Below the pieces are notes generated by a model. It worked only from the letters and a program-made list of their open reading frames with translations, had not been told where the DNA came from and ran no database searches. A stretch of 55,944 bases of DNA, filler included, from Sphacelaria rigidula (taxonomy: Eukaryota), in the NCBI GenBank assembly GCA_964200075.2. It is 6 parts of 6 records of this genome, joined end to end, with 100 filler letters (N's around TTAATTAATTAA, not from the genome) between each part and the next. Parts side by side here need not be neighbours in the genome. Positions count along the whole stretch, not along the records: positions 37,366 to 46,605 come from CAXNAA020008955.1; 5 more parts are not named here. One strand, 5' to 3'. The translations under genes were made by a program, and so were the position numbers. Positions 1 through 53,886 of this stretch are shown here, piece after piece. How positions within the stretch are numbered: position 1 is the stretch's first letter; every line of letters starts with the position of its first letter.

Positions 1-382
1 CGTGGTGTGTTCGGCGAGTCGCACGAAGGGTGAGCTGCATCTGGCTGAGATTGTTCGGCCCGAGGCCTACTGGTTATCTTGCATTTGGATGACAGCTTAC
101 GATGAGTTGCTTTATTATCTGGTATCGCCACTTCCAGAGACAGCCACGGCTTATACACTGCCTCCTGGGTGTCTCACCATGGACCTACGACGTAGTACGA
201 TCATCCCCATTGTGCGGAGTTGAGGTTTTCCCACGCCGCACAACATAATCTAGCTCGACTACCATCATGGTTACCGCCAAAAAAAATGCAAGCGCGCCGA
301 AAAACCCCGGTAACCTGGTTGCCTAGCTTACGCAGTGAGTGGCGTGTTTTACAGCGTTATCGCCAACTGACGACAACCCCAT
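1..382 (-). mobile_element. Family A retroposon (SINE-like), 5' part; cut by the contig start
   Basis: Clearly alignable to 36545-36925 and ends at the same boundary (GGGGTTG[G/T]CGTC.. on the minus strand). Confidence 0.8.
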
Positions 383-423
383 GAAGCGCAGTGGTGTGTT
401 CGGCGAGTCGCATGAAGGGTGAA

Positions 424-525
424 GGGGGGGGGGGGCTCATGATCTTGCATGCTGTGGTGATGTGACCGTTGACCTCGCATCCCTACAAGGCCGGGACAGA
501 GCACGCCGGCCCTTCGCTGGACAAG
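424..525 (-). mobile_element. Family A retroposon, 5'-truncated copy with poly(C) tail
   Basis: On the plus strand a G-run is followed by CTCATGATCTTGCATGC..GACCTCGCATCCCTACAA..GAGCACGCCGG, the reverse complement of the family A 3' end. Confidence 0.75.
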
Positions 526-1280
526 GGGTGCGTGTTGGGGGTGGGGGAGAGGGGGTTGTCCAACATGCTCGCGTGTTTTTTAGATGAAGCGAAGGCGCTT
601 TGTAGGGACGTGCATGTCGAATATATTCTCTTTTTCCACCTTGGTTCATCTTGTTCGTGAGTTGGGTAGCTAGCATACTATATTTACTAAATTCCATATG
701 TGTCGAGCATAGGCATTCCTGAAATGCCATTTGGCTCGGTAGTATGGCGAAGGAGTGAGGTTCTCCGGCGGCTGTGCTCGCACGTGCTTACTTATTGCAA
801 ATTCTTGAGAGCAGTTGCGGTTCCGAGGTTTGAATCGATCATGGTTCAGACTTCATTTTATTTCATCCGTCAAATGGGCCCTGGGGCACAAAAAACCGCA
901 CCCTTCACTTCTGCCATGTGCACGTACGTACTGTAATATTGCATCATGCTGTCGAAGCTATTGAAACGAGGCCACGTTTTCTGTAGTATCGTGGTCTGAA
1001 TTTGGAAAGGTATTGGGAGTAGTGAGTTTCTATATTCAACAGCTTTGTCCAATGGCGGGTACGCCCTGTACGCCCTCTTATGGTGAAACACTCAGGGTCT
1101 TTCCTGCAAGAATATATTATATAAGTTGGAGTCGAGGTACAATAATCGGGATCAGCGGTCATGGACTTGGAATGGATTTTTCGCAGGAAGATAGTCTTTG
1201 ACCGAACTCTTGATGATGTTTCACCAAGGGGGCTGTTTCTGTGTTCATTGGTGCGCCTTGCTTGTTGTCACGCATTGCAG

Positions 1281-4200
1281 GCAACCGTTGCAGAAATCGT
1301 GCGGTTTCCGGTCGACGACCACAGGGACACGCCCATGGCCGACACCACAAATCTGGCGGAGATATGTACGCAAACGTGCAAAGGAGAGGTAAATCGACCC
1401 CACGAGATCGGACTCGATTTTTTGCGTGGATCGTACTGGTTGGGGTTTCAGTTCTCGTTGTGTAAATTACTTTATTCCAGCACGAGCTTCATGTCGTCCG
1501 TTTGGAGTTTGATTTGATTGGAAATTTCAACATATGCCAGCTTTTAACCTCCCCCCCCCTCCCCGAGTCTGCTCGAAAGGGATGCGTGGTCAATGGTCAA
1601 ACGACTGAGGCAAACAACAAATGAGTACGCCCCCCCGAGTCTGCCATTTCCGGGGTAGGACAGAGGTACCGTCAGATCTTCACAGGTGATCGCCAACTCC
1701 TGTGCATGGGGTGTTGTAGGTGCGGTCTTGCTCTCTAATTAGAGTTGTTGCCGTTTAGTCGAAGGGAACTTTGCCGTGTGCGCCCCCTCGTACTTACTCC
1801 CCTCATCTCATTTGCATGACCCGTTCTGTGGGGCTTCCCCATCCCCCGCCCCCTCTTCCCCGTCCGTGCTGCGATTCGGTTTTCGTATAAATACAAGTGC
1901 ATGGAATAATTAGTATATTGTTCGATAGTCGCTCTGCGGCGTAAAAAATTGCAGAGTTGTGTCCTGTAGGGCACGGGTTTCTGTATACCCAGGTTATTAT
2001 GCCGAGTGTTTACCGTACCCGACAGCTCTGAGACTTCTGTTAGACTTTCATACCAGTACCCGACGGTTCTGTAATCTCTGCAAGACTTTCATGCCCTTGA
2101 CCGGGGGGCACAGGAACGCTCTTGATAAGATACCTAAGTGCGGGTACGGTTTTCTGTGCAACCTATACTCTACCTGACAGTTTCTGTGAGTTCTGTAAGC
2201 CTCCCATACCCTTACTCGACAGTTCTGTGAGTTCTGCACAAAACGTTTACCCGTACCCGGAGCGCGGGTATGGTCTTGAAGGGATACCGTTTGCCGGTAC
2301 CGGTTTTCTGTAAGCCTCGCATACCGTACCCGACAAGTTCTGTAATTTCTGTGAGACTTTCATCCAGTACCGATACCCGACAGTTCTGTGAGCTCTGTAA
2401 GCCTCCCACACCCCCACTCGGGGTTAGGGTATACCGTTATAGATAAACCCGATTGCAGGTATGAGCACAGGTATTTACCTCGGAGAAGGACAGGTAGACG
2501 TTCAATCCACACACAACCGCATGACCTGAACATGTACCTCCCATCGATCAACCAACCCAACTCCTTCATTCGAAACTGCACACCACCAGTACTTCATTGT
2601 TGAAAACTTCTTTAGTTTGGGATTTGACGGGATACGAGGCACCGCTAGGTGGAAACACGACGAAACATGAGCAGCCCTGCAGACCGTCGGGATGGATCAC
2701 CCCCAGACTCGAGTGGTGGCTCGAACGGGGGCGGTTCATCTGCGCCACCAGAGGATCAAGTATTATAGCAAGACGCACGTCATCGACGTAGATGGTGGTT
2801 GTATCGTGGTCATCAAACCCCAGGCCTTTAGTGACATATACAGCACGGAGTATGAGCTGCCACCGAAAGTCGTCAAGGCTGTCGGCGATTTCGTCGCGTC
2901 CCGAAGAGCTTCCAGAGAACGGGCAGCCGTGAATGCTCCCCCATGTTTTCTCTGGGAGTTGTACGTGAAGCCGATAGATGTTGACGATCCCGTGCACATG
3001 TACTACTGCGACTGTCTGTGTAGTGCGCATGTATTACTGCGATTGTTTGTGTAGTCTTCCTCTATTAACCCCGTGAAGGCGTTCAGATTTTTCGTGAACT
3101 GTCATATGTATTTCTCCACTGTTGTAGTTACGTATGTCCCACCACAGGGGTGATGATGATCCCAAGGCCGTGTTTTGTAGGGTACGGTTTGCTGTGTACG
3201 CAAGATATTTTGCCGAGGATTCACCGCATCCGATAGTTCTGTAAACTCTGTAAGACTTTCATGCAGGCTGGGCCGCCCAGGACGCGGACAGGGATGTGAA
3301 AAGCCGATTCAGCAGCTCAATTTTGAGTCGCTCTTTGTAAAATTCTGACACGATGTACAGCACGTAGGTATGAAGACTCCATCTTTTGCCCCCTTCTTTT
3401 TTTTGTTCGGGAGGTATTCACGATTTTTTTGCGAAATAAATCGTTCTGAAATGTTTGGTCGCCGATAACTCACGAAGAAAAGAAACAAAATTTAGGGGGC
3501 GGAAAATAGAGTCTTTGCACATACATCCTATACATGGTGTCGAAATTTTGTCGAAAATGACCCAAACCTGAGCCTAAATCGCGTGTTCGGGTCGACAAAC
3601 TGTTCCCACGTGGAGATGGATCAGCCACGAAAAAACGAAAGGCGGTTATTCTGTTCAATTTCAAGTATTTTCCCACGAGATTCTGACACAATGCGCGTGA
3701 GGTATGTTGTGAAGTCCCTGTTGTCCGCCCTATGACATTTTTTTTTCCATTAACCCTCTTGGGACCGGATTCCCAGAACATGGTGTTTGTACACAGGGGT
3801 CCTTTTTGTTACTCGGTATAATCTTCATTCGTTTTCAAGTCAAAATGATGCCGATTCACAGGAACGCCCTTGCGTGGAAACACCATGTTTCTGGGAGCCC
3901 GGTCCCAAAAGAGTTAAGTTATCGACGCTTTTGTATCAGGAAAACTGTTCCGAATTTTAGATCATCATTAACTCCCGAGGAAAAAATGAAATAAAAGAGG
4001 GGGAAGCGGAAGGGGCTTCACATATACCTAATGTGTATCGTGTCAAACTTTTATGGAAAGCGACTTGAAATCGCGTTTTTCCGTCGAGAACCGGCGCACT
4101 TGCTTTTAGAGTACAACAACCTCAGCCGGAACTTCGACGTTTTTCACGAGCCCGACGCCTTGGGACGCTGGAGATCTCGTCTGCGTGCCATCTCAGACCC

Positions 4201-7200
4201 TGCGCGCGTACAGTACGACATGCATTGTTGTACAACCGCAGTTAGTGCAGCACCATCACTTTGCGGCCGCGGCACAACCGACTGTAACCATAAACGCGAT
4301 TTTAACCGTTTGTTTCCCTAATTCTGCCGCACATGCCACCCTCAACTCTCTACATTTTGCAGCGGACTACAGTTTAGTATTTCATTTGATGGGAAGTTGT
4401 CGGATCGCAGTGCTACTTGAAGTGAAAGATGCGCGTTGATTTGCAGTTTACCACGATGTGTCGTAGTAGGCACAGCTCGCGATAGATGGTCAGTTAGAGC
4501 CGGCTGAAGGAAAGTCCGCTTCTTTGGCGGCCCAGCCTGTACCCGTACCCGATAGTTCTGTAGTCTCTGTAAGACCCCCGTACCGTTACCGGGGGGCACA
4601 GGTACGCTCTTGATAAAATACCTGATTGCGGGTACGGTTTTCTGTGCAACCTCCATACCCTACCCGACAGTTTCTGTGAGTTCTGTAAGCCTCCCATACC
4701 CCGACCCGACAGTTCTGTGAGTTCTGTACACAAACTGTACCCTAACCTGAGGGGCGGGTATGCCCTAGAAGAGTTACCCGATTGCCGGTACCGATTTTCT
4801 GTAAGCCTCGCATACCGTGCCCGGCAAGTTCTGTGATTTCTGTAAGACTTTCATACCGGTACCCGACAGTTCTGTAAACTCTGTAAGACTTTCATACCGG
4901 TACCCAATAGTCCTGGAAGTTCTGTAAGGAATATCATACCCTACAGAACGTACCCGTACCTTACACAACACAACCTTGAAAAATTGTTTTCACTCTGGGC
5001 ATGTCACATGACCCTTGGTTGTCTGTACCATGTAATATGAACGACTTTTCGTTTCTGTCCATGTCCAAGGGAGAACACGTATCTAATTCCTGATATATCC
5101 GGGGCGTTCGATGCTAGCGAACTGCCCCATATGTTTCTTCTGCTTTGTACACGATAATCGAGAAGCATTCCATGCATACACGGCAACTGAATGTCGCCGC
5201 CCTGCACACTAGTATGGGTGAGTCATGGAAGCAATCAAATAGTTGACGACACTGGGGGACTAACTAGGTAGTATGGCTCTTACTTCGCGTGTTTGACATG
5301 AGCAGAGCGGTCCTTTGGCGACCTACAGCACCCTCCTTACCGACATGTCTGGGCAGCGATCGCACGTGGTCAGCAAGGTGCTCGGGGTTTATCAAGACGC
5401 GGCTCAGCGAGGGCGCGCTAGAAGTACGTGACTGGGGATGTGTACAAACTAGTTCAGTACCGGTACAGTGTCGTATAAGATTATTCGAGCAGTTTGTTAT
5501 TTCTACAAGTTCCGGTGGCGAGGGCAGGCCAAACACTCGTGCCTCTACTGTATCGAGAAGGAGGGGGGGGGAGGGGCGTACTCATTTGTTGCTTGCCTTA
5601 GCCGTTTAACCATTGACCACGCATCCCTTTTGAGACGGAGCACTCGAGAAGGGGGGGGGGGGTAGTGATGAAGTACAGTACGGGGAACGCCGTAGGAGGA
5701 ACCGCAGTCGGAGCAAAACTTACTGAACGTTGTTTTGCAACGCTGTACTGGTGACCCTGATAATGTGTCGCGGGTGAGCTTTTCCTTTGAGTGTCATTTA
5801 TCCATGGTCAGCTGCTGTCTTGTAAGAGTTTATTTGCAGAAAAGCTACCAGGTATGTCAACCGCAGAGGGGTAAATAGTTTTGCGCACTGCGCGCTCTCT
5901 TTAGTTTCACGTGGTGCTTTCATCGCAGCATTTGTAATCCCCCCCCCTCCTCCGCCCCCCAGTGTTCAAATGTTGAGACACCCATGATGCAGTGTGAAGC
6001 CCGTGGCTGTCTCTTGAAGTGGCAATATCAGAAAATGAAGCAGCTCATTCGAGGCTGTCATCCATATGCACGATAATAACTACGCTCTGGGCCAAACCAT
6101 CTTCTCAGGATGTAGCTCACCCTTCAGACGACTCGCGAAGCACATCACGGCGCTCCGCGCTTGGTGATTGATTGCGAGCCTGGTCCGTCGAAAGCTTGGC
6201 GCGCTCCGCCCTGGCTTTGTGGGGATTCGAGGACAATGGTCACATGACTGTGGCATGCATGATCATGAGTACACCCCCCATGTCCGCGCGCGTGTACCCC
6301 ATAACATTCGCAGTTCTTACCACGCTCACCGGGCCAAGCGACGCGGCGCAGGCACCCACCTGTGCGGCAGGCGAGCTGACGGCTAGAGTGGTGCTGGTGT
6401 TGGCCAGGCATCCGTTTACGGCGGCTTTCGCATCAGCTTGCGAGCACATCGCTGAGTTGATACTGGAAGAGGTGAGTCGTCCCCGAATTCTTCCGCCTCA
6501 TTTTGTTGTTGAATTCATGTGCCTAAGTGTATCCCAATGTGAGGGACTGCAGCTGCATGTGTCCAAAGATGTCGTTATCCATAGCAACAAGCAAGGTATT
6601 GGCTGTGCTGTCGTGCGTAGAGTGTTGCGGTTGGGGTTGGTGCTGGTGTCAGTATTTTTGTTGTTACAGAAAAAAGATATGTGCATGCCCTTTGTGATCA
6701 CAGCTTTTTCGGACATGATACCATGCCGTTTCTTGTCATGCTGATATTCCCGCCTGTGTTGTTGTTGTTGTTATTGTTGTTGTTGTTGTCTTTTGGAATA
6801 TCAGGCTCCTAAATGGGGATCTCTTGACATGTGGCCACTGGATCTGAACGAAGAGCGACGCAACGCGCAGATCAAGTTCGCGATGGAGTACTACGCCACG
6901 GAAATGCCGTTACCGCTGCCGTCTAGAGAGGCCAGAATCGAGTGAGCTTTAAGTCGTCTAGGATTTCACCGCGAAGATTTTGGGATGTTTTTCTGCACCA
7001 CGAGAAAACTACGCGCAGTATGATCATGCAGCAAAAGCTCTTGTGAACTCGCGTTGACTACTTCGCAGTCAAGGGATTGAGATTTCGAAAGGTTCTCAGC
7101 GATGCCCGTAAGAGATTTCGAGTCGTTGCCTCGTTGCTTGGCCCAAGTGTTGTGTTTTCAGCAACACTTTTGGGGGTTATGATGAATAAATATTTATAAT

Positions 7201-8578: not shown

Positions 8579-9008
8579 GTGAGTGCAATGGAGGCATGTT
8601 CCGCGTGAGGCGCGTTTTCGAAATGCGGTTCAGGTCGCAGCGTTGTTATTTTTTTTCTTATGCTCCCTGAATAGGCGAGTGATCCGTGTGGACACGTAAG
8701 CTTGAAAGCTGCTACCCTTGGAACGTTTCCAGCGTGTGCCGTACCGTACTCGTTTGCCATTTTCACTGTGTGCATGTTGCTGATAGTGTGCTCTTCTACT
8801 TTCAGAGGTGAAAGTGACAGCCCCCCCCCCCCCCAAAGAAAGAAGTGGGGGATGATGCAAAAAAGGAAAAACAGTTTCAAAGTGCAAAGAATGCAGACGG
8901 GGGAAAGNNNNNNNNNNCCGTTCTCCTTTTCCATTTTTCCTTTTGGGCTTTTTGGTATAGGTGTCCTTTTTACTTTTAAGGGGGAAAGGGAAAACCCCCC
9001 CCCCCCCC

Positions 9009-12334: not shown

Positions 12335-12750
12335 AAGGCTACTCTGATTTCGCATGCCGTAGTCATGAGACTATCGACCTGGCATCCCGACGAAGTCGAG
12401 AGACGGCGCCCGCCGTGTTTTCGCCTGACCAGTTCCACAATCAACAAGCGCGAAGTGCCGTCATGTGTTCGGCTAGTCGCATGAGGGGTGAGCTGCACCC
12501 TGCTAAGTTTGTTCGGTTCGAGGCGTACTAATCATCTTGAATGAACGGATGCCGACCTCAAATGAGTTGCTTCGTTTTCCGGTACCGCCACTTCCCGCGA
12601 CAGCCACAGATGACACTGCCTCATGGGTGTCTCATCGTCCAGACACTACGAACTACGATCATCCCCTTCTGCACGGAGATGAGGTTCACCACCCTGCACA
12701 ATATGATCCAACTCATCCCCGTAAGAGCTGGTTTCCTGCATGGGGCACCT
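12335..12750 (-). mobile_element. Family A retroposon, diverged copy
   Basis: Follows a G-rich tract at 12313-12332 and aligns to 36430-36800. Confidence 0.75.
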
Positions 12751-14790: not shown

Positions 14791-14979
14791 CACAGGCTGT
14801 ACAACGACAAAAGACATCGTTGACAAAAAGTGCACGGTGTAGGGTACAGTATCGAGTATGTTGTCTAATGCTACAATCAACAATGGACCTAGTGTCAAAT
14901 GCTACATTAGGCAATAGATTCGATACTGTACGCAATACACTTTCTGTCAACGTTGTCTACTGTCATTGTCCAGACTGTG
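14791..14979. mobile_element. MITE, CACA(C/G)(C/T)CTGGA(C/T)AATG-TIR family
   Basis: Left CACAGGCTGTACAACGACA, right TGTCATTGTCCAGACTGTG; the internal motif TTCGATACTGTACGCA is shared with other copies. Confidence 0.65.
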
Positions 14980-15913: not shown

Positions 15914-16038
15914 TGAAATAGGCACACCTTTGATTGGGAAAAAAAACGTTGCCGTTCCCACAAGAAGTAATTCCACACCGCTCATTATGGGAGATGTTCT
16001 AGGGGGTGGACAGAGGGGGGTGGGGGGGGTGGGGGGGG

Positions 16039-16098
16039 CGTTCTCATGTGCTGCTTACCTCAGTCGTCTGACCATTGACCACGCATCCCTTTCGAGAC
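16039..16098 (-). mobile_element. Family B retroposon 3' end with 16-bp TSD
   Basis: Direct repeat GGTGGACAGAGGGGGG at 16005-16020 and 16099-16114; the G-tract at 16021-16038 corresponds to the poly(C) tail. Confidence 0.8.
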
Positions 16099-16122
16099 GG
16101 TGGACAGAGGGGGGGGATATTG

Positions 16123-16279
16123 CACACCCTCCCTAGACGACGACGACGACACACAACATTGCCCAAAACTGTACCGCATACAGTATCGATTTTATTGTCT
16201 ACTGCCAGTGACAACAAATTCGATACTATACGCAGTACACTTTTTGCCAATGTTGTGCGTTGTCATTGTCCAGACTGTG
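16123..16279. mobile_element. MITE, CACACCCTGGACAATG-TIR family
   Basis: Right TIR TGTCATTGTCCAGACTGTG with a degenerate left TIR; aligns with 14791-14979. Confidence 0.6.
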
Positions 16280-17115
16280 CAAGGAAAGGTACATTTCACC
16301 GCATCTTATGGACCTAATCAAGGGATTATCGCCGCTATATATCGTCAACACCAAGCACTACCGCACCAAAGAATCTAGCCCACTTACCAAAATTCCAATT
16401 GCAAATGAGAAAAAAAAAAAGTGACAAGATGCTGTGCGAAAAAAAACCCGGCGACTTGCCAACTTTTTCACATCGTCTTCTACTTTATTTTTTTCCCTTG
16501 GCCATCTTCAGCTATATGTGTTCCTTGGCAATGGGCTATTCGGCAGCACCTCCACACCCTGGACAGCATGTGGTCTCGTCAAAAGTTTCACTAAAAAAAA
16601 AGTGTGTGTGTTGTTTTCGACTACAACTGATGACCATATACCGTCCAGAGCGTGAAAACCTTGAAGCAAGTCCAACTACACCATCACAGAGTGATGGCGA
16701 GCTAGACGATCCACTTCCAAGCGAGTTGATGCTTGGTGTCACCGACGCCACATCGCGACGAGAATTCCAGTTCAGGGTCAAAAAACGCCGTCAAAATGTA
16801 CACAATCTCCTATATCCAAATGAATGGCATCCCGTATCCACAAGAAGCAACCTTGAACAGATGATTCTCAGCAAGGGGAACGAAAATCCTGTAATCGAAT
16901 TAAAAGAAGGAAAAAAAGATGTTCGGAAATGTGGCAAATGGCACCCCTCGGAGGTACCTACGAGGGAAGGAAAACCCCAGCTATTGTGAGAGACATATAC
17001 TGCTAGTATGCTCGGAGTAAGAAATACTGTGACAGTAGATACCGCGGTCGGTCAGATAAAGATGTCACAGTTACATCTCACTACAAGCTCATTCACTCGA
17101 TTTTCCAACCTCAAA

Positions 17116-18495: not shown

Positions 18496-18530
<35 letters not shown>

Positions 18531-18584
18531 ACACCGAACACACAAACAACACACCAAAACAAAATCAAATATACACACATCACA

Positions 18585-22000: not shown

Positions 22001-25000
22001 AATGTTCTTTCGGGGCTGTGTGTCGGTGCTGTGTTGCCCTAGAGCTTGATGTCTGCAGCATGACAAAGTGGGGATTCGTAGTTTACAGGCCCGTTGTACC
22101 GCCGAAACTTGAAGTTGGACCCTGAAATTTGGTGTAGACAAAAAATTGGGCATAATGGAAACAAATACCAGTGCACACCAGATTACATTCACCGATTTCT
22201 TCCACTCAGCATACCCCTGTGGTTCTCCATCCCGAGTTTCAAAACATGATTATACGAATGAAGCTTATGAATTGAAATGAGGGATGGAAGCAGTGTTGAT
22301 TTCTTCTCGAAATTGTCCCAAAAGGCCGAGAAAGTAAATGTGGCTGTGTTTTCAAGCTTCATAATGCATGACTCGGGGATTGAGACGCGATATCCAGGTT
22401 TACCTGATCTAGTGCATCTGCTCGAAATGTACTGATTGTAAGATAGAAATTCATGTGTGCTATATCTCGAGATGAAGGAGGAGTTGGATAAAGGTGACTT
22501 TGTATCGTCTCCTCATGCTCCAGGGGAAGTCCATATAAAAATTCGTCATCCGCTTGACTCATCGATTAGGGGTTTGAGAAAGATTATAGTATGGACACCA
22601 TGTCCCGTCAGGTATGGGAATTACTGGACATGAGATTTGATCACTGAGAAAAAATGAACACAAACCCCCGAGCAGATGGGCACCTTAATGTTCGTTATAG
22701 AAAACAGACTGCGGATCACGCCCCAACTCGTCCGTGTCGACGAGAAATTTCGTCGAGAGCTTGAATCCGTGTCTGGGCTGCCCCAGCTCCTACACCGGTC
22801 TTGGACATGCCTGGACTCATGACCACTTCCAAGTCCGCCGCATTTCTCAACCTACGTCCTACTATGAGTTCCGATCTGGACATGATTGCTTGTCGATGGC
22901 AGTCAGGACTGGTCGTTATGGGGCCAATCCCCCGTCATGAGGGTATGTTGGGAACGGGTATTTTCGTTTTCGTGAATTCTTGTAATCTACAACCCACGTC
23001 ACGTATCTGGAGGGATATCGGGTGCGATCCCGTATGCGCCTGGGATAGTCCAAATATCCGGATATGAAATTGTGCGAGACTGCAGATATTCACGAAGATT
23101 ATTCCACCCAACATATCCATATGATCTTGTAGCCGTTTTCAGACCCAATATCGAACTCTACTACCAAAAACTGTGTCGAACGGGTGTCTCTGTGGGGCAA
23201 GGAGGGACCGGCGGGCGGTGGTCGGAGATTCAACCCATTGCCTGTCGGCTCGATTCAGTCTTGGAGCCATCACGTGCTCCTCCTTGGGAAATAACACGCG
23301 AAACTGAGACGGTCAAGTCTGCCGGTCAAACGGATTTGAGTGTCAAGTCGACCCGGAATATAAACTCACTTCATGCGCTTCACCTTCTTTCTCGTCCTGC
23401 GGCCACAAGCGACAGCAACCGAGACGGTCACACTAGATGGTGATGCTGGATGATGGAAAAAGGGGCCAGCATAAGCAGCGTGCTGAACCATGAAGCTATG
23501 TTACAATGCGTAAGCTCAACCTCTTCTTCAAGGCACTCGAAATGTACTTTGTTCACGAGTGAAGACTCACGTTCAAATGTGTTTCCTCGACTTTGTTACG
23601 CCCACCTGTTATCCGTTTCTCGCTGCAGGCCCCTACAAGATCAATGGTGTCCCATTGAGGCGCGTGAACCAGGCGTACGTGATCGCGACGTCGATGGTGG
23701 TGGATATTTCTGGTGTCACCATTCCTGTTGCGGACGATGCTTACTTCGCGCGTGTCGCAGCGCCAAAAAAAGCCGCCGAAGATCAATTTTTCGAGCAGGC
23801 GTCCAAGGTGCGAAACAGGAGCAGTCTTGAAGCAAAACTATGACGTGACGGAACTAGAAAATTACTTGATCGTACCAGTTGGCCAGCGAAAGGATGGGTT
23901 GAAACTTTTGGCTACATACCGACACGATTGAATTGTGCTGTGATCTGCATATGATATCCGTCGTTTGATTCAGGAGGAGTTGCGCATCTGCCCAAGGATA
24001 CTGTTTTTTTTTCTCGTTGCATGAACACCTGACTAATGAATTCCTTCACGTACGGGGGAAGGTTCCTACTGCCGGTATATGGAACCTGGACGACATACAG
24101 CGGTCATGATCGGAAAGTTGGAGTGACCTGGACCTGTCGCAACAAGATGTTGCCATTCCCCCTCGAAACGAATCACTTGTTGCTTTATTCACGTTTTTCG
24201 GAGGTGCGCGCACGAGACTTTTTTAATGTATGAGCCTAAAGTTTCTAAACTCGAGCTGTGCGTGTAGCGTCTCGTGCAGCCCCGCAGCACGTCATTGTTC
24301 GAAGTAGGAAAGCCTCCATCTAGGGATTTTGTGAGTCGAATCCCGACACGACCATTTTTCTTACTCTATCTGCGGTTGACCCGGACCGTGCTGAAGGCAA
24401 ACCTGAGCTTTGGAATCAGTATACCATCGACACAGACGAGGTGGAGCCGTGGTTCACGTATCGTAGTTTTAGTCTGATCAAGGGGCAGGTACACATCTTC
24501 TCCAATGTCCGGGCCACTTCTTTCCCGTTCGATGAAATCCACGTCGCTACCACCACCGAAGTAGGAATACAAACATGAACCTGTTTGAATGTAACTTTTC
24601 TGCAATGTGTTGATGAGATCGCACTACCTTGAAAAATGCATCTTCGATTTGCGCCCGGCCCAATTTCCAGGTTGCTCCTCCCCGCATAATTTCAGGAAAA
24701 TGCCAACTCACGGAAAAAAAACTTTCCTTCCCGGTGTGATGATTTTTCACACCCTGTGCATCTATGCCAACAAACCACTTGGCTGGTTTTCGACCAACTG
24801 CCGGCCGGATGTGTTCGAACAACTAGTTGGGCACGAGTTAGAGTAGTAGTTGTTTCAAAACATTTCGCGCGTACGATACTTGAACAGCATTGTGTTCGAG
24901 AGCACCTAGATGCGCGCGAATTTCAAACAGGTGTCTGCTGGCCCAGGTGGTCGTCAACGTCGTGCAACGATTATCATAGGACTGTTGGCTGAAACAGAGC

Positions 25001-28025: not shown

Positions 28026-28049
28026 GGGGGGGGGTGGGGGGGGGGGGGG

Positions 28050-28227
28050 TGTATCGTAGAAAGTTTCGTATTTAGAAGGTTTTGAGTAATGTATGAAAGA
28101 AGGTTAGTGAGCACCCACATATTGGAGGTGTCTCTAGCAGGAGTGGGAACGGTGCTCCGTCTCGAAAGGGATGCGTGGTCAATGGTCAAATGACAAAGGC
28201 AAGCAACAAATGAGTACGCCCATCCCC
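28050..28227 (+). mobile_element. Family B retroposon, longest copy; probable LINE ORF C-terminus plus tail
   Basis: Ends ATGAGTACGCCCATCCCC; one frame reads VLSNV*KKVSEHPHIGGVSSRSGNGAPSRKGCVVNGQMTKASNK*. Confidence 0.6.
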
Positions 28228-28230
28228 TTG

Positions 28231-28475
28231 TTGAGGGCTGGCGTCGGTCGGCAACGACGCTGTGAAACAGGCCACTCTTTTTCCGGCCGAACATTTTCAG
28301 CAGGATGCAGTTCACCCTTCACGCGACTCGCCGAACACATCCCGGCGCTTCGTGCTTGGTGATTGATTTCGAGTCTGGCTCGGCGAAAATCCGGCGTGCT
28401 CCATCCCGGCTTTGTAGGGATGCGAGGTCAGTGGCCTTGTGAAGTCGACGTGCAAGACCATGAGGACACCCCCCA
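28231..28475 (+). mobile_element. Family A retroposon, internally deleted copy keeping both ends
   Basis: The 5' head GGGCTGGCGTCGGTCGGCAACGACGCTGTGAAACA is joined to the 3' about 190 bp, ending CATGAGGACACCCCCC. Confidence 0.75.
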
Positions 28476-28639: not shown

Positions 28640-28762
28640 ATCATAAGGCCATTGACCTCGCATCCCTACAAAGCCGGAACGGAGCACGCCGGGATTTCGT
28701 CGGACCAGGCTTGAAATCACTCACCGAGCGAGAAGCGCCGTGATGTGTTCGGCGGGTCGTTT
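28640..28762 (-). mobile_element. Family A fragment
   Basis: CCATTGACCTCGCATCCCTACAAAGCCGGAACGGAGCACGCCGG..GTGTTCGGCG on the plus strand. Confidence 0.7.
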
Positions 28763-35688: not shown

Positions 35689-36412
35689 GTATATATATAG
35701 AATATTCCGAACTCACGGGCGTGAAGCATACTTTGTAACGAGGCGACCACGAGATTCAATGCTGATTTTAGTGGGTAAGTTCCTCCGAACCCGCCCCGGG
35801 ATATGACTGTTCGGGCCAATGCAAATGTTAGGGGTCACGTTGGGGGATTCGCACTTTACTTTGTGCGGGTACACATGCGTTCGCGATCGTTCGAACGGAC
35901 GCGCGATCGCGGTGGTCCTGCAATGTTTCCGGCGGGTATGAACATTATTTCGAGAGAGGATATATTCTCACGAGGGCTTTCACGAGGGCTTGGCAAGGCA
36001 AGAATACCGGGACCCTCGAAAAAGACGGACGGGACCGGGGCGCAACCCCGGGTCCCGTGCGGCTTGTATATGTATATAATATAAATTGCATCTTCATGTC
36101 CATGAGACTCTGCTAATAAGATGACCTTGCAAAAAAAACTACCGCTGTAGCTTATCCAAAATTCCCTCGTCCCTTCGCTGACATCAGCTCGAAGAGGATC
36201 GCGACGAATCTTGTGGGGATGTATTTCGACGCTCACCATCAGCGCTACCATGTCGAGATTAACCATACCATTTGCCTGGGGACTCTGGATGGTCGCTAGC
36301 TTGGAAGGCACCCCAATGACCGCTACCGCAAATCGTCATTTGTTGTTGCCGTCCGTAGGCCAAATTCCGCTTGATACTTGCGTTCACTGTAGAGCCGGAG
36401 TGTGTTACGATA

Positions 36413-36925
36413 GGGGGGGGTGTACTCATGGTCATGCATGCCGTAGTCATCAGACCCTTGACCTCGCATCCCTTCAAAGCCGGAACGGAGCACGCCGGGG
36501 TTTCGCCGGACCACGCTCGCACTCAGTCACCAAGCGCGAAGCGTCGTGGTGTGTTCGGCGAGCCGCATGAAGGGTGAGCTGCATCCTGCTAAGATTGTTC
36601 GGCCTGAGGCCTACGGATTATCTTGCATTTGGCTGACAGCCGACAATGAGTTGCTTTATTTCCTGGTATCAACACTTCCAGAGACAGCCACAGCTAATAC
36701 ACTGCCTCATGGGCGTCTCGCCATTGAAACAGCACGTAGTACGACCATCTCCTTCGCGCGAAGTTGAGGTTCCCCTACCCCACAGAGTTTGATCAAGCTC
36801 GACCACCATTATGGCTACCGCAAAAAACATGCAAGGGCTCAAAACAAATCGGTAACCTTGTTGCCTTGCTTACCCAGTGAGTAGCGTGTTTTACAGCGTC
36901 ATCGCCAACCGACGCCAACCCCATC
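36413..36925 (-). mobile_element. Family A retroposon, apparently full length (about 510 bp)
   Basis: The minus strand runs from GGGGTTGGCGTCGGTTGGCGATGACGCTGTAAAAC to CATGAGTACA-C8; no long ORF. Confidence 0.85.
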
Positions 36926-37128
36926 GGGGGTCCGCCCCTACAAAGCCGGGACGGAGCACGCCGGTCGCCGGACCAGGGAGTCGGAGGGGGGTAAATTCCA
37001 CGAAAAACAGGGGTTCATGGGTGTGCCAGACGACCTACACACTCGCGATACGCATGAATATCGGTGAAAACGATGTCACGTAGTATGAAAGAGTAAGTCT
37101 TGCTGGTAACAAGTGCCTTTGAACAAAC

Positions 37129-37222
37129 GGTGCTCCATCCCGACTTTGTTGGGATCCGAGGTCAACGGTCACATGACTATGGCATGCAAGATCATGAGCC
37201 CCCCCCCCCCCCCCCACCCCCC
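37129..37222 (+). mobile_element. Family A 3' end with a long poly(C) tail
   Basis: GTGCTCCATCCCG..GCATGCAAGATCATGAG followed by a C-tract. Confidence 0.75.
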
Positions 37223-37265
37223 CCGGCGCGGGGTGTCATCGGAGCGCCGGCAGCCACAGCGGGGG

Positions 37266-37365: not shown

Positions 37366-37401
37366 GTGGCGAGGTTTGGTGGGTTGTGGGGGGTTGGGTG
37401 T

Positions 37402-37439
<38 letters not shown>

Positions 37440-37763: not shown

Positions 37764-40700
37764 CTGACTTGGGCTGTGGTCGGCTCTATCTTCGGCATCA
37801 ATTCCGTCAACCTCTTCACGCAGGTGACGGTCTCCATCGCCATGATGTTCTGAGGAGTAGCTCCAGGAATCTATCGCCCGTAGAGGGGTAATTCAAAACG
37901 ACACACCAAGTACTCTTCCTGGGACTCATGATCGCCTGCCTTGATCGAGGCCTGTATCTGTGGGATGTGAACATCAGCTTCTCTCTCGCCGAGTTGTGAT
38001 GTCAGGGACGCCGCCTCGACCATTTGGCACACATAGTAGGGGATGTTCTGGCAGCAACGACGGAGAACCTCCTAAGACGAAAATGTTTGTTCGACGGAAA
38101 ACTCCGCCTGAAAGCTCTGAGCGCACACTTCGCAAGCGTGCCATGTGTTTTTTTGTGTGTGTTATTTCTGCTTGTATCTCAAGCGGCCTGGATTCCAAAG
38201 CAGCCGGACGGAGCAGCGTGATGATTGTTTGGTCTTGGACGCACAATGCCTGCGCTAGATCGACGCCCGCCGGCTACGATGCTCATGAATCTCCTTGTGC
38301 TGCTTCCCAGCAGACCGTCGTTGTCGGCTAGTTGAATCGGTGCGACGTGCGACGTGTCGCCGATTTTCCTGCAATAGGAACCCCTCCCGTTTAACAGCCG
38401 CTCCTCTCACGCTGTGACCGTTCCCTTACCGTCCACACCGCCGCGGAGTGTAGGTTCACACGCTAACGCCGCTGAGGAAGCGGCTGGGGTACGTTTTGTT
38501 CTGGGTGCTCGTATTGGCGTCGAAGGTGAGCTGGCAATACATCGTGTTCGTAGGCACACGTCCAAAAATGTAACCGCTATCTATATTCCCGTCGCAAGTC
38601 TATGCTCGAATAGAACATGATGTCGACTCAATCCAAGTGTCGATAGGCACGTGTTGCAATATACACGGGCACCGACTTTGCAATGTTGTCAACAGGATGA
38701 CGAGTCAAATCCACGTGTCGACCTTCAGCAAGAACGTTGGTCTTCTCTTCTTCTCCTCCGCACGGTTGATAGGGCCGTTTTTTTCCACGGAGGAGGAGGA
38801 TCGGATAATCGCACAACCATCCTCGGGCGGGAGGGGGGGAGGGGGTTACAAGAACCATTCTCCGATCCAATGTTATTGGTGATGTGTGGGGCTGCGCCAA
38901 AATTGTCCCCATGTATCGCTATTCCTGAAGCAAAATTCTAATGAATCGAAAACAGATCTCGTTCAGCTATATCGCCGTGGTCAAGAAGCTCACCCTGGCG
39001 ACCTATGTTCTCTACAACTCGGATGGCACCGAATACGACTTCGGGATTTTCTCATTTGAGGACGCTAACAACATCGTGTACATCGCCGCCCTCTGGATCG
39101 GCAGCGGCCTCATATATTTCCTCGACATGCAGATTTGGTGGGTCGCTAGGGAGGGGAGGATGGGGGCCTATGGACGTCATTCGTTTGTTTTTTAACTGGT
39201 ATAGAGGAAGGAACGATAGAAGGCGTGCGTCCTGTGTCTTGCGCCGTTTCGCGCAATTTGTACAGGCGGCCTTGGTCCAATGTATTGGACTCGAGGTCAG
39301 GGACCGTTGTGGATGTAGTTGGCGAAATAATGACCGCGTTGCGCGCCATCCTGCAACCTGACGCGCTTCACAGGCTTACGCTGAATGTTCGACTCGTTCT
39401 AATACCGACATACTCTTGGCGCTCGAAACATTTTTTTTTTCAGGTTTGTCATCTGGGCCAACATTGCCGCCGCGGTAGAGGGGATTCGACGCCGGGTGGG
39501 AGAACTTAACGACTCGGATAAAGTTCGCCGTGCCTTCACGAAGATGCACCTAATGTTTTTCAGGTAGGTGATGTGCTTCCCAGGAAGCGTACACCGTCAC
39601 TGTGGAAACGAAGTATTCTCAAGCATCTGTGACATAACCACACTAACCACGAATACTAAATGTTTTATAGCTTCGCTGAGACACGTATCATTGCATTTAA
39701 GGGATTTTAGCAATATCCGTTTCGACTTATGACAGTGCTGATGATACCCGCAAGTCGGTATCTGCAGTATGCAGGAGCGCTAACTATGTTCACTACAGCG
39801 CCGACATAACCCATTGCCCCGCCCGCCCGCCCGCCCACCCCGCGACGCTTGTATATTTGTGGAACTTCGCCACTGCAGGTACGTGAAGTATGACATGCTG
39901 GAGTCTACGCAGCACACCCGGTTCGCGCACATCTGGAACGAAGTCGTGGACGCCATGCGCGAGGAAGATATCATCTCCAATTCGGAGAGGGACCAGGTGC
40001 GGTCTTCGTTGCCGTTTTTCATGCTTGAGCGGAGCACTCTTTGCTTTCACCCAAGATTGGTTAGCGCGGGCGCTGTGTCGGTGCTCTAGTTGTAGAGACT
40101 GCGTCCGTGGATATCGTTTGGATCATACACGGGTTGATGGTCCCAAAGATAGTGAGTTCAGACTTGAGGACCAAACAGCTAGAAAGCCGCTGGTCGTGTG
40201 AAATGACCACCGTCTATGTTGTCCAGGAGATCGGAATTACGGAACCCTAGGAACGTCACGAACGTGCTCTCCACTGTGCTCGTGTTTTCGCTGTTGCATG
40301 CGGAGTCAGTCTCGAGTATGTCACTGCTGATTGCTACAGTATGGGAGACCGGCTTCACTTATAACCCCCTCCCCCCGCTTCCATCAATCTCAATATTTTC
40401 CTTAACGCTCAACCCTATGGTCGTTTAATTCCTGCGTGGGTTGTCGCGCTCCCCTAGATATGTTGCGGCCTTGTTCCCCCCCGTCCGTCAGTGTGCTCCG
40501 TCTCGAAAGGGATGCGTGGTCAATGGTCAAATGACTAAGGCAAGCAACAAATGAGTACGCCCCCCCGTCCGTCAAGCGTGAGGTGACGACCAGTAACGCC
40601 CCCCGCGCCACGCCGTTCGCACCATATGTCGTCTTGGCAGCTTCGCTATTTCTTGATCAGTCTGCGGATGCCCGATTTATCGGTTGGCGGAGACGTGACG

Positions 40701-48693: not shown

Positions 48694-50424
48694 TCAAGCA
48701 GCCGCAGACTTTGCTTCTGGCATTGCCGGATCTACGGAAGGCGGGGTCCCCATAAGCGCCTTGATCCAGATCGCGCAGATCGACAACGTCCCGTAGCTCA
48801 GTCCCACCACCACGCCCGCATCCACGATGGATCTCCACGGGTAGGGCATGCGCTTCACCAACTGCACCAGGCACAGCACCCCCGTGGTCAATCCCCAGCT
48901 GACAGTCTTCCTTTTTTTGGTGGCGTGGAACAGTCCCATGCTGTAAGGTCCGGCCAACAGGACACGAAGCGGTCCCGGGCGGCCCGATGGAGTTGCGGGT
49001 GTGGTTTCTCTCGCGTCAAGCGTAAGAGCGCGCTTGACGACTAGGGGGGAGAACTTTTTCTGAAATCCCTTGAAGCCTTCTGCGTACGCCATTAGAAGGG
49101 AGAAGCCCCCGTACATCGCCCAGTGCATGTGTGTGAAGTCTCCCTGGCATGTATGCATCCCATCCGTGCATGAAAGCAGAGGGAAATTTTTCGTTGTCCA
49201 TAAAGTCGGTGGTTGACACGCGCGTAATGTATAGAAGTATTCAATGCATTTTTGCTGTTGCGGAGAGTAGCGATGATGATGACGACCCGTTCACTCTTGC
49301 GTATTTAGCCTAGTACTCATGGACGAAAACAACACTGAAACGTTCGATACTACTTTAGGTACCTTGTCCCCCACTCCCTTCCTCCCGTGCGGGGTGGGAG
49401 GACCTCAATTCCGCGTAAAGGGGATGATCGTACTACGTAGTGTTTGAATGGCGAGATACCCATGAGGCAATGTGGAACTCGAGGCTGTACCTGGAAGTAG
49501 CGATACCAGAAAATATAGCAACTCATTGGAGGCTGCCATTCACATGCAAGATAAAGATAATCAGTTCGCTTCGGGCCAAACAATCTTAGCAGGATGCAGT
49601 TCACCCTTAATGCGACTCGCCGAACACATTACGACGCTTCTCGCTTGGTGATCGATTGCGAGCCTGGTCCGGCGAAAACCCGACGTACTCTGTCGCGGCT
49701 TGTAGGGATGCGAGGCCAATGGTCCCATGACTACGGCATGCAAGATCATGAGTCCCCTTCCCTCTCGGCTTTGGAGGGATGCGGGGTCAATCGTCTTACG
49801 ACCACGGCTTGCAATATCATGAGTACCCTCCCCCCCCCTCTCCTCTCTCACCCTCGAGAACGGCTGAACAGCGATCGGCGCCAGCCGCGTGATCGCCTTC
49901 ATCAGGATATAAACTACAGACACCACCCCCCACGCGCTTCCGAATCCAAACCCCGACGGTCCACCCGCCACCGCCGCCGCCGTCGCGCCCCCCGACACTA
50001 GCAGTCCCTTGCCAGTACTCGGCGAAGATCCAGGTACCAGAGGCGAGGAGTCGTGGGCTTCGGCGGCTCTTTCCAGGTCTGGGGAGAAGGCCATTGCCAA
50101 TCTTTGCTTCCTCGGAGAGCAGATGAACCTCCGGCAGCGTGCTACACGGGTGCCTGTGTGGAGGGGCAAAATGGTGATGATCCAAGATGCGAGCCACAGT
50201 CAGTCGATGTTCTTGGAAGGCGGCAGAAGAGCATGGTACCAGCAAGTGTTAGAGCTAACGCACGTACGATATACCCGTTACAACTCAGAGTCACCTCGCG
50301 GGTCCTGTACACCGCAGGTGTCATGAAGTTGGCCTCCACAGACGCGGTATTTACGACCCGTGGAACGCCGAGAGTCGGGCGTCAATTCTGGAAACTTACA
50401 GAGCGATCCCGCCGCACAGGGCAT
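48694..50424 (-). CDS. Conserved hypothetical multi-pass membrane protein
   Basis: Exons 50400-50424 (tentative start MPCAAGSL), 49852-50153 (..AWGVVSVVYILMKAITRLAPIA..), 48694-49143 (..MAYAEGFKGFQKKFSPLVVKRA..MGLFHATKKR..PYPWRSIVDAGVVVGLSYG..*). Phases match; several hydrophobic segments. Confidence 0.8.
49395..49838 (+). mobile_element. Two tandem family A copies (about 49395-49760 and 49766-49838) in an intron
   Basis: Each ends CATGAGT(A)C plus a C-rich tract; the second, shorter copy starts right after the tail of the first. Confidence 0.8.
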
Positions 50425-51519: not shown

Positions 51520-51847
51520 TAAATACGCATACCTTACATTCAGTTCAACCAGTGTCATCACGAAAAGAAACAAGGAACAGAAACAAGTTTTGACAAAAGG
51601 TGCCGTGGTGGTAAAAGTGTCATGATCACAACAGGGTGAAAAACAATTGTGCCACGGGAAGAGCAGCAGGGGTCCTTACAACATGTCTTTGTGCCGTACC
51701 TGCCTAAAGAGCTGCACGCTGCATTCAAGAGTTGTGGATCTCTCACCTTCTGCTGGCTGGCTGGACTCGCGAATCGGAACAACTATAGTTTTGTTCTTCT
51801 GCATATAAGAGTAATGCCACAATGACCCCTCCCCCCAAACCAGCCCC

Positions 51848-51977
51848 GCTTGATGTTTGATTGCGAGTCTGGTCCGGCGCTGGTCCGGCGAGAACACGGC
51901 GTGCTCTGTCCCGGCTTCATAGGGATGCGGGGTCGATGGTCTCATGACATGGGATGCAAGATCACGAGTACACCCCG
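51848..51977 (+). mobile_element. Family A retroposon, 5'-truncated, with TSD
   Basis: Direct repeat CCAAACCAGCCCC at 51835-51847 and 51978-51990, each preceded by Cs. Confidence 0.8.
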
Positions 51978-52326
51978 CCAAACCAGCCCCAAAACTGCCA
52001 CGAGTAAAATGGCCATTCAGCGCATAATAGTTGGTTTCGAACTGCATGAAAAGCCTCATGTGGGAAACATTGGCGAAACGATTCTAAGCGTGGGATTTCC
52101 TAGCTGCTTGGTATGCATTTTTATTGACATGTAGATTTTCTTTTCTAAAAACACGTCACTCTTCTGAGGAGGAGGGGGGGTGGGGGTTATCGCGGCATCA
52201 GTCTTCATATTTTTTACTTGAGTTCCGTGCCTTGCTGGCTGTCCATGAAGAAGGCAGTACAGATCCGTACCATACTGTCGTTTGTTGCACCACAAGTACC
52301 GTTTGTTTCGAAGTGTACACGAGTGT

Positions 52327-53886
52327 TTATATCCGTTCCATTTTCCCGCTCTCCACGCCCCAAACGATGCCGACGCGCTTTGAGTCGCCCATCCTCGGTA
52401 CTAACGTTCTCGGCAAGTACTTCGACTTGTGGAGAGCTGTTCGGTGAACTGTGTGCACGTCAACGTGCTCTTGAGGAGAGTGTTGCGTCTGTTGTGTTCC
52501 CGGGGCGCGAGTTCGAGTCGGCAGCGCAAGTAGCCATGAAAATAGAGTAAAATACTCTTTTCCCCTTGAAATTTTCCCGACGCAAGACAAACTCGGCATG
52601 CTTATCGGTGTATCGGAGGTACGAACCGCGCTACGTGCCGCCGGTAGCAAGAACTTTGTCTCAGAGTTGGCGCTAAAATTATATATTGAGGGTTTCAAAG
52701 CTCGGCCAAGAAGCCATCCCCGCGCGGGGGGGGGGGGGGGGGGGGGGGGTCCACAGGGAAAAAACCAGATCATGCTCGTACGACGAAAATAAATGCCATG
52801 CACGTTGCACCTTATACGGTATCTCAAATGCTCTCAACAGGAAGCCTGCACTGAATGGTCCAGTCGCCTTTTGGTGCGCTGCTTCGTACGCTACCGCACT
52901 GTACGGGCTGTCAGAGGCTACCCCCAGTTGTTGCCGTAATGCCCCTGTGATACTTCTTACCAGATTTCAAAGTGCATCTCTTAGACGTGATATACGAAAT
53001 TGCACATTACGTACAGATCCGTGTGTAGGCTGGCTTAGCCCGCACACACCGTCGTTTCCGGGACTGCACAGTCCCGAACCAGAGCAGAGCGATTGTAGCA
53101 GTAGGCACATATGATGCTGTGGTGGTCTGTTATTTCAGTCTAGCGTATAGGTGAAGGGCTATCGTTACTCTTTTGCCGCGGTATATGGTATTTCCCAGTA
53201 CTGTGAACGACGAACAGCGAGCGCGGACATGAGCATGCAAGAGGCTTCAGAGTTTGATGTAGCAAGCACAACCGAGTCACGGAAAAACTTTAGCTTTTTG
53301 ACACGGTCAACTCCCCGGGTTGAGCGAGGGTATTGCGCCTCAGCCTGCTGAAGGCGCCGCAGGCGAGGGACCAAAACACAGGAGAACACATTCAACACTC
53401 GGGTGGGCGGTATGTTTTCAGTGTTGTGACTGAGGGCGCCTAGGAAATGTCCAAGGACATCTTAGGAAAGACATCATAACAGGGACTGGGTTCTTGTTCC
53501 TGCCCCATCCTCACGGGAGTTGTCCATACCGTCCTCACGAAGAGCACAACCGCGTCGGTCGTCCTCAACTCCAACTTTTAAACCCTCCACACAGGTGATT
53601 GTAGAGAACAAGCGGACAGAAAAGGTGGGTGGGCTTGCACTGGTGGATTCGTAAAATCATCCCTGGAATGAGAAACTCCCAATATTGCACCATTGTGCCG
53701 CACTCTAATTGCTGCAGCAACGTACTCACTTGATGCTTCGGGCGTCGACACGGCAGTAGCGGTTGCGGCCCTCACAAACGCTGTCGGGATGCTACTTCTT
53801 CCTCCAGACGAAGCTACAGATGCCACCGACACGGACATAGCAAGGAAGAATACTCTGCTTACCGCCGCCGCAGACGATACGCGCAT
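52327..53886 (-). CDS. Putative multi-exon protein of unknown function with an N-terminal signal/transit-like peptide
   Basis: Exon 53704-53886 (MRVSSAAAVSRVFFLAMSVSVASVASS..PTAFVRAA..) and exon 53216-53347 (QAEAQYPRSTRG..DSVVLATSNSEASCMLMSALA) join in phase. Later exons (about 52811-53126 and 52327-52488) are tentative. Confidence 0.5.

Follow-up and report, generated by a model that had tools for sequence, protein, structure and literature searches.

The stretch of DNA analysed here (hereafter the window; 55,944 nucleotides, filler included) comes from the brown alga Sphacelaria rigidula (GenBank assembly GCA_964200075.2). It consists of six contigs of 9239-9242 nt each with N44-TTAATTAATTAA-N44 spacers between them, has three further 10-N gaps, and its G+C content is about 50%. 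Two related subfamilies of dispersed repeats lie in it, A (about 67 bp) and B (505 bp at full length), which end in a common 3' module followed by C-rich sequence. One copy of family A, on the plus strand at 40491..40559, is a 69-bp insert made up of the full-length 67-bp unit and two extra bases at the 5' end. It lies between perfect 15-bp direct repeats, CCCCCCCGTCCGTCA, at 40476..40490 upstream and 40560-40574 downstream, and there is no inverted repeat at the ends of the insert. We describe the repeats and the sites that they occupy, and then propose how they were inserted.

A reading of the window from its sequence alone (the sequence-only reading) had proposed at least 15 copies of two related families on five of the six contigs, and our searches agree with it. 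The core motif of the common 3' module has 15 matches with at most one mismatch where 0.28 are expected, and none of 100 shuffles reached 15. An nhmmer profile search of the window recovers 14 complete 3' modules and one 3'-truncated copy, and BLASTN with the 40491-40559 insert as query points to about 15 related places. In addition, there are a copy whose 3' end lies off the window (1-382) and fragments at 383-422, 36936-36980 and, weakly, 12216-12248. The contig at 18685-27925 is the one without a copy.

The family A unit is 67 bp long, GTGCTCCG...ATGAGTACG. Its copies are 87-98.5% identical to the 40491 copy by BLASTN; three of the five begin at the same base and the other two are 6-10 bp shorter. 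For family B we use the minus-strand copy 36925..36421 as the reference (refB), and a full-length 5' end is common to three copies within about 4 nt. A and B are alike only in the last ~68 bp, the 3' module, where they are 73-81% identical. This module terminates in ..ATGAGTAC(A/G): exact ATGAGTAC closes seven of the 14 complete modules and one- or two-base variants close the other seven. The exact motif occurs once more in the window, at 49320, where it does not belong to a module. Directly 3' of the module there is C-rich sequence in all 14 complete copies, with a run of at least six Cs within 25 nt in 11 of them (tails include C7, C8, C12, C17-A-C8 and C8A-C8A-C6). By refB position the 5' ends fall at 1-5 (3 copies), 126, 142, 195, 361, ~385, 404-406 (2) and 433-452 (7), the last range being 433-446 for family B alone. 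This makes 10 or more different reference positions against a single 3' end, which is constant in 14 of the 15 copies whose 3' region is inside the window. Thus the constant 3' end with its C-run and the variable 5' truncation, both claimed beforehand, are confirmed in the 14 complete modules.

Target-site duplications (TSDs) flank five copies, at the places where the sequence-only reading had put them. Besides the 40491 copy these are a full-length A copy on the minus strand (5577..5643; CCTTCTCGA, 5553-5561 and 5644-5652, which extends to 19 bp with one mismatch, 5553-5571 and 5644-5662), a 5'-truncated A copy on the plus strand (1573..1629; CCCCGAGTCTGC, 1561-1572 and 1633-1644), a 5'-truncated A copy on the minus strand (16039..16098; CCCCCCTCTGTCCACC, 16005-16020 and 16099-16114) and a 5'-truncated B copy on the plus strand (51848..51972; CCAAACCAGCCCC, 51835-51847 and 51978-51990, or 17 bp with one mismatch). 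In this order, starting from the 40491 copy, the TSD lengths are 15, 9-19, 12-15, 16 and 13-17 bp (range 9-19), or 15, 19, 15, 16 and 17 bp with one mismatch allowed. The frequency of such repeats was compared with chance in the 13 insertion units that have both ends inside the window. Each unit was scored by the longest repeat ending no more than 3 nt from the 5' junction, and only bases beyond the leading C-run were counted, so that C-richness cannot inflate the score. As a control, each 5' flank was paired with the 3' flank of every other unit, giving 156 cross-pairs. Scores of 7-11 were obtained by five of the 13 units, whose repeat stops precisely at the 5' junction, and scores of 3-4 by the remaining eight; a score of at least 7 was reached in just 4 of the 156 cross-pairs. 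Within the window, TSDs therefore exceed chance. An uncorrected longest-common-substring test of the flanks is less clean, because pure C-runs match one another.

The TSDs also identify the target. All five start with at least two Cs, and in all five copies the upstream flank, which is not element-derived, has 6-12 consecutive Cs at the TSD's 5' edge. The base before the C-run is T or A in each of the five. At least six Cs occur within 25 nt upstream of the 5' junction in five of five TSD-bearing copies, compared with 1.2% of random 25-nt windows. Since the C-run with which the TSD begins is also present in the upstream flank, it was there before the element arrived, and insertion into a C/G tract is established for these five copies, as the sequence-only reading had it.

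Target-primed reverse transcription is recognised by a constant 3' end, staggered 5' ends, TSDs of variable length and a lack of terminal inverted repeats, and it is on these features, with TSDs of 9-19 bp, that the earlier view of the repeats as target-primed retroposons is supported. The best overall explanation, which we consider likely, is that the A and B repeats are non-autonomous non-LTR (long terminal repeat) retroposons of a brown alga, inserted into C/G tracts by the machinery of a long interspersed nuclear element (LINE). Because the ~68-nt 3' module is the sole part common to A and B, we suggest that it is most likely the handle by which the LINE reverse transcriptase (RT) would pick up the RNA. 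The LINE endonuclease (EN) would nick the strand that carries the G-run (the C-run being on the element strand); given that TSDs begin in a C-run older than the insertion, this first nick would be placed inside the complementary G-run or at its border. The G-rich 3' end thus released would prime cDNA synthesis at the module end, probably aided by pairing with a few Cs after the module in the RNA; transcription running on into the C-run beside the source copy would supply these Cs. With the other strand cut 9-19 bp away, the insert would be flanked by a duplication starting with Cs, and reverse transcription would often stop early and leave 5'-truncated copies. Each new copy would again adjoin a C-run, so that copies may become targets themselves and head-to-tail clusters may form.

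The role of the C tail in this scheme is where the best surviving alternative differs. The C-run could merely be the preferred cut site of the endonuclease, with an RNA that has no C tail and with no C:G pairing, as in R2-type initiation without annealing. With one mismatch allowed, the C-rich tail outside the TSD measures 0, 0, 1, 5 and 18 nt in the five copies, and the TSD covers nearly all of the 3' C-run in four of them, as a simple preference for cutting would predict. The fifth, the copy at 16039, is a young one and carries an 18-nt C8A-C8A tail (16021-16038) outside its TSD, which such a preference does not explain. The same is true of older copies, which have long interrupted C tails of up to C17-A-C8 with no matching run upstream. 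Also against it, consensus sequences of the brown alga Ectocarpus are annotated with '(C)n 3'' ends in the catalogue entries of PMC12477816, and in RTE-related elements the tail repeat correlates with the first TSD base according to the part of PMC6007223 concerned. On balance we find endonuclease preference alone a possible but rather unlikely account. The sequence-only reading had gone further and envisaged a poly(C) RNA tail primed from a nicked G-tract. Its targeting of C/G tracts holds, whereas its tail pairing does not follow from the five copies, because with one mismatch most of the 3' C-run falls within the TSD, and a cutting preference for the tract would fit nearly as well. That the RNA ends in poly(C) and pairs with the nicked G-tract is plausible.

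Four head-to-tail units are present in the window. At 28152-28468 (plus strand) a full-length A copy (28152..28218, 98.5% identical to the 40491 copy) with a C-rich tail lies directly upstream of a B copy (28235..28468) in a composite unit; the B copy starts from its full-length 5' head (refB 5-47), has an internal deletion and continues with refB 319-505 and a C6 tail. At 527-1 (minus strand) a 5'-truncated 3' piece of B (436-527) with a C12 tail (424-435) and a 40-bp B fragment (383-422, refB 349-388) stand head to tail (383..527) upstream of a B copy that runs from its full-length 5' end at 382 (1..382) and whose 3' part lies off the window. The cluster at 36980-36421 has a 50-bp piece of the module region (36936-36980, refB ~404-456), then 10 nt, and then the full-length, non-coding, 505-bp reference copy of B (36421..36925, minus strand) with its C8 tail (36413-36420). 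Finally, at 49388..49827 (plus strand) a long B copy (49388-49756, refB 142-502) is followed by a short one (49766-49827) within its C/T-rich tail. A partial 3' piece in the same orientation is thus found upstream of all three copies with a full-length 5' end, and a public open reading frame (ORF), P0125, has the same junction, with the module start joined to the B head. Such clusters may have arisen when a new copy entered the C tail of an older one, or when the template was switched at the RNA 5' end, and both fit.

A more far-reaching idea, which we put forward tentatively and think unlikely, is that the 67-nt 3' module is a complete retroposon in itself. It would seed its own C-run landing sites and, with G:C priming, build arrays in which a start site near refB 404-438, within the 3' module, drives the downstream copy. 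Such a start site would account for the 5' ends that coincide at GTGCTCC (four copies) or at refB 404-406 (two), and for the composite units in which a full-length copy follows a 3' piece with its C tail. 'Promoting in tandem' of this sort is known from HeT-A. The refB 404 position is the 5' end of two pieces, at 36980 and ~527, and the 51848-51972 copy has a 10-bp internal tandem duplication (TGGTCCGGCG) at this same position (window 51848-51900).

The partial pieces upstream of full-length copies could also be read as pseudo-LTRs made by template jumping, in which case the repeats would depend on a Penelope-like element (PLE) of the Chlamys type and not on a LINE. That all three full-length 5' ends have such a piece in the same orientation suits this reading, and so do the variable TSDs and the 5' truncation, which also occur in PLEs. 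PLE/Chlamys families are moreover present in Ectocarpus, as the catalogue entries of PMC12477816 record. Set against this, Rfam gave no match in the whole window at the gathering threshold, hammerhead ribozyme included, and at E<=10 on 36380-37000 it gave two chance-level matches only, with no hammerhead. Further, only one Chlamys family of Ectocarpus has its 3' end described, as '(A)n 3'' with 'no pLTR', and it is RTE-X that the '(C)n' and C-rich TSD annotations belong to (PMC12477816, same entries). We regard a Penelope-type driver as a minor and quite unlikely alternative. Hardly any credit is left to a DNA transposon or miniature inverted-repeat transposable element, a Helitron remnant, a segmental duplication or a satellite adjoining C-runs by chance: some copies do lie in tandem or close together, whereas there are no terminal inverted repeats, the TSD length (9-19 bp) is not fixed, 5' ends vary in position with the 3' end the same, the copies are spread over five contigs, and their flanks are unique, with no paralogous flank matches in the window.

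Several points weigh against insertion by LINE machinery with the aid of a C tail, the explanation that we prefer. No TSD rises above the control in eight of the 13 units. Three of these are composite or nested, two are the members of the tandem pair, with imperfect C/T-rich repeats, and the others are B6273 (CCCCCCA only), B12338 and B37201 (no flanking repeat). No paralogous empty site is present in the window. In four of the five TSD-bearing copies the extra tail is just 0, 0, 1 and 5 nt, which argues only weakly for a true poly(C) RNA tail. The constant 3' end has its sole exception in the minus-strand B copy at 28641..28759 (refB 361-479), which is without the last ~26 bp and without a C-run. 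For the 3' module as a recognition site, the consensus fold is -5.24 kcal/mol with compensatory change in 0 of 12 pairs, and the single-sequence fold z-scores are -0.86, +1.61, +0.01 and +1.98. A Pfam search of the 126 stop-to-stop ORFs of at least 100 aa in the whole window found no RT or EN domain. Since there is no reverse transcriptase in the window, the assignment to RTE-X is by analogy, and on this footing an RTE-X-type LINE is most likely the driver. The likeness to the RTE-X families of Ectocarpus, a different species in a different order, is one of catalogue descriptions.

The only Pfam family above the cut-off was a Ribosomal_L6e exon at 23514-23840. Among named relatives the best match, at 95% identity, is an 'unnamed protein product [Sphacelaria rigidula]', and the next named matches come from other brown algae. 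The exon lies on the third contig, which has no A/B copy, and marks the source as a brown alga.

The remaining copies all belong to family B or are of B type. A 5'-truncated copy on the plus strand (5963..6273, refB 195-505) has a C6 tail, and its sole flanking repeat is the 7-bp CCCCCCA. An old, 5'-truncated copy on the minus strand (12338..12722, 75% identity) has an interrupted C-rich tail and no clear TSD. A short B-type copy on the plus strand (37130..37224) starts with GTGCTCC (refB 433-438) and has a C17-A-C8 tail and no TSD. Beside the 16039 copy, the flank at 16099-16298 contains a 52-68-bp repeat, in both orientations, that is common with 14905-14979; this is another small repeat family.

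Family B is non-coding, with stops in all three sense frames. ARAGORN found no tRNA-like head in it. Near refB 98-103, about 100 nt from the 5' end, B has a T6-T8 run (window 36822-36828 and 276-284). A T-run of such length is an RNA polymerase III terminator, and as a stop it argues against transcription of the whole element by this polymerase. With no tRNA-like head and no Rfam match, the A and B elements are not short interspersed nuclear elements (SINEs) in the strict sense. A ribozyme or structured RNA in the 3' module was considered and rejected, since no Rfam family matches, the consensus fold is weak and single-sequence folds are like those of shuffles.

A profile of B-frame peptides was searched against 1.84 billion representatives and gave 76 matches at E<=1e-3, which are short spurious ORFs in public assemblies. 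All are 43-245 aa long, save one tandem-repeat ORF of 1089 aa. The possibility that the B body is a decayed LINE ORF was rejected, because the matches are short and an RT/EN domain occurs in 0 of the 16 tested. Past the module end, three of the five relatives that read that far have Pro/Ser/Thr-rich residues, which implies C-rich DNA there. The 1089-aa ORF (P0142) has 12 tandem repeats, its match to the B profile is weak (E 1.7e-7) and its Pfam matches are repeat artefacts; it is probably unrelated to B.

The sequence-only reading had further proposed that the elements could account for the long C/G homopolymers at contig breaks. There are 35 C/G runs of at least 7 in the window, of which 11 are element tails and five are target-side runs (16/35); a weak B-like 3' end before 12198-12219 would raise the linked runs to 17. 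Ten runs are at least 12 long, and seven of these lie within 78 nt of a gap or contig end. Among the ten, the runs at 424-435 and 37199-37215 are element tails, 12198-12219 is weakly so, and 5651-5662 is a target-side run; among the seven near a gap or end, 37199-37215 is the sole clear element tail and 12198-12219 a weak one. The module is not found upstream of the runs at 18498, 37402, 52726, 28036, 8821 and 8995, and no other repeat family lies upstream of those at 18498, 37402, 52726 and 28026, save for A/B copies near 28026. The proposal is not supported, as few of the ten runs of at least 12 are element tails. For the assembly this means that the elements are tied to about half of the runs of at least 7 and not to most of the very long, assembly-breaking ones.

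Some of these long runs have features of their own. The C33 and G37 runs (18498-18584; 37366-37438) lie 37-55 nt from a contig end and have no A/B module. On the outward strand both are followed by a similar A/C-only stretch (ACACC.AAC...CACCAAA), and the sequences upstream of them are unrelated. A poly-G sequencing artefact behind the contig-end runs is unlikely, as we infer from the outward-reading strand, which is C and not G at 18498 and 37402. Two C14 runs, at 8821-8834 and 8995-9008, are 174 bp apart and flank the 10-N gap at 8908-8917. Their contexts are near-identical (..GAAAG..ACAG/AAAA C14 [A/G]AAAGAAAGA.GTGGGG.ATGATG), and the pair resembles the outcome of a local tandem duplication that has no connection with the A/B elements. 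Midway along the sixth contig, a G24 run (52726-52749) has neither an element module nor a repeat on either side.

The A/B repeats are among the commonest in these contigs, and the 67-bp form is too short for standard repeat finders, which matters for annotation. In the brown-algal genome project, an Ectocarpus repeat library, RepBase and TRF were used to mask the assemblies, that of Sphacelaria included (bioRxiv 10.1101/2024.02.19.579948), and the masking-related passages of that report do not describe the A/B families.

A full-text literature search for a poly(C)-tailed non-LTR element returned nothing relevant, and in the literature searched we found no biochemical test of a G:C counterpart of the T:A priming of L1. 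The sequence-only reading had named no characterised element of this kind, without excluding an earlier description. That nothing alike has been described is not supported, since the Ectocarpus catalogue (Genome Biol 2025;26:320; PMC12477816, supplement file 1) has entries for RTE-X LINEs whose 3' ends are given as '(C)n 3'' and whose TSDs as 'C-rich', and for non-autonomous derivatives of these LINEs. RTEX-1a_Ec32 is entered as 'single EN-RT ORF; (C)n 3'' with a 'C-rich' TSD, and RTEX-2_Ec32 with '(C)n termini/TSD'. Of the derivatives, RTEX-N1a_Ec32 is a non-autonomous element of 607 bp that 'can be present in tandem' and is noted as '60 bp 3' end 83% RTEX-1_Ec32/RTEX-2_Ec32'. RTEX-N1_Ec32 exceeds 6000 copies and takes up 2.48 Mb; autonomous RTE-X LINEs share its conserved 3' end, and its 5' region, or head, is of unknown origin. 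RTEX-N2_Ec32 is a non-autonomous RTE-X dependent of 188 bp. The passages concerned in PMC12477816 give the C-ends and C-rich TSDs as annotation notes, without discussion of mechanism. The repeat known as 'Sower', the most abundant unclassified one in Ectocarpus at ~2.5 Mb according to section 6 of a review (PMC3145265), is probably RTEX-N1, judging by coverage alone (~2.5 Mb against 2.48 Mb).

The A/B design is thus already catalogued in Ectocarpus and is not new in kind; the points of interest are the very small 67-bp form and the clean homopolymer-linked TSDs. Both systems have a brown-algal host, '(C)n 3'' ends and 'C-rich' TSDs. Family B resembles RTEX-N1 as an abundant non-autonomous family of 500-600 bp with a 5' head of unknown origin, and in both systems a shorter second family has the 3' tail alone in common, over some 60 bp of 3' sequence, and copies occur in tandem. 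A and B show several features of RTE-X dependents, namely (C)n 3' ends, C-rich TSDs, a common 3' tail, tandem occurrence and a 5' head of unknown origin. What defines such dependents is an autonomous partner whose RT groups with RTE-X, and kinship in sequence with the Ectocarpus families. The Sphacelaria window differs in having no autonomous partner, and the common 3' tail is seen here between the non-autonomous A and B only. The short families differ as well: RTEX-N2 is 188 bp long, whereas A, at ~67 bp, is essentially the tail module alone.

In RTE-related retroposons, the first base of the TSD correlates with the microsatellite-like repeat at the 3' end of the RNA template, as the relevant part of Nishiyama and Ohshima 2018 (PMC6007223) describes. 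The LINE/SINE pairs of the RTE clade are similar to the present case in that the SINE has the 3' end of the LINE and the first TSD nucleotide tracks the 3' repeat; they differ in that the tails are short microsatellites and the first TSD base is a T, some ten nucleotides downstream of a stretch of Ts (PMC6007223, same part). In the A/B elements, by contrast, the TSD starts inside the C homopolymer itself.

In L1 and Alu, too, the 3' end is constant, 5' ends are truncated and the variable TSDs open with the base of the tail, and the nicked homopolymer strand primes on the tail. The A/B elements share the first three of these features, including TSDs that begin with the homopolymer base. They differ in that the homopolymer is C:G and not A:T, that the tail does not come from polyadenylation and was probably copied from the source locus, and that the tail beyond the TSD is mostly 0-5 nt, whereas it is tens of nt in L1 and Alu. 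In LINEs that target microsatellites and other repeats, and in Penelope-like elements that attach to telomeres, the RNA has a 3' end that matches its simple-sequence target by complementarity and sets the start of priming. Those targets are di- to hexanucleotide repeats or chromosome ends, whereas A and B enter interstitial C/G homopolymers and make TSDs. With TSDs that start in a C homopolymer, the A/B elements are a clean natural case in which to test whether the nick or priming site of RTE-type elements is set by the 3' repeat of the template.

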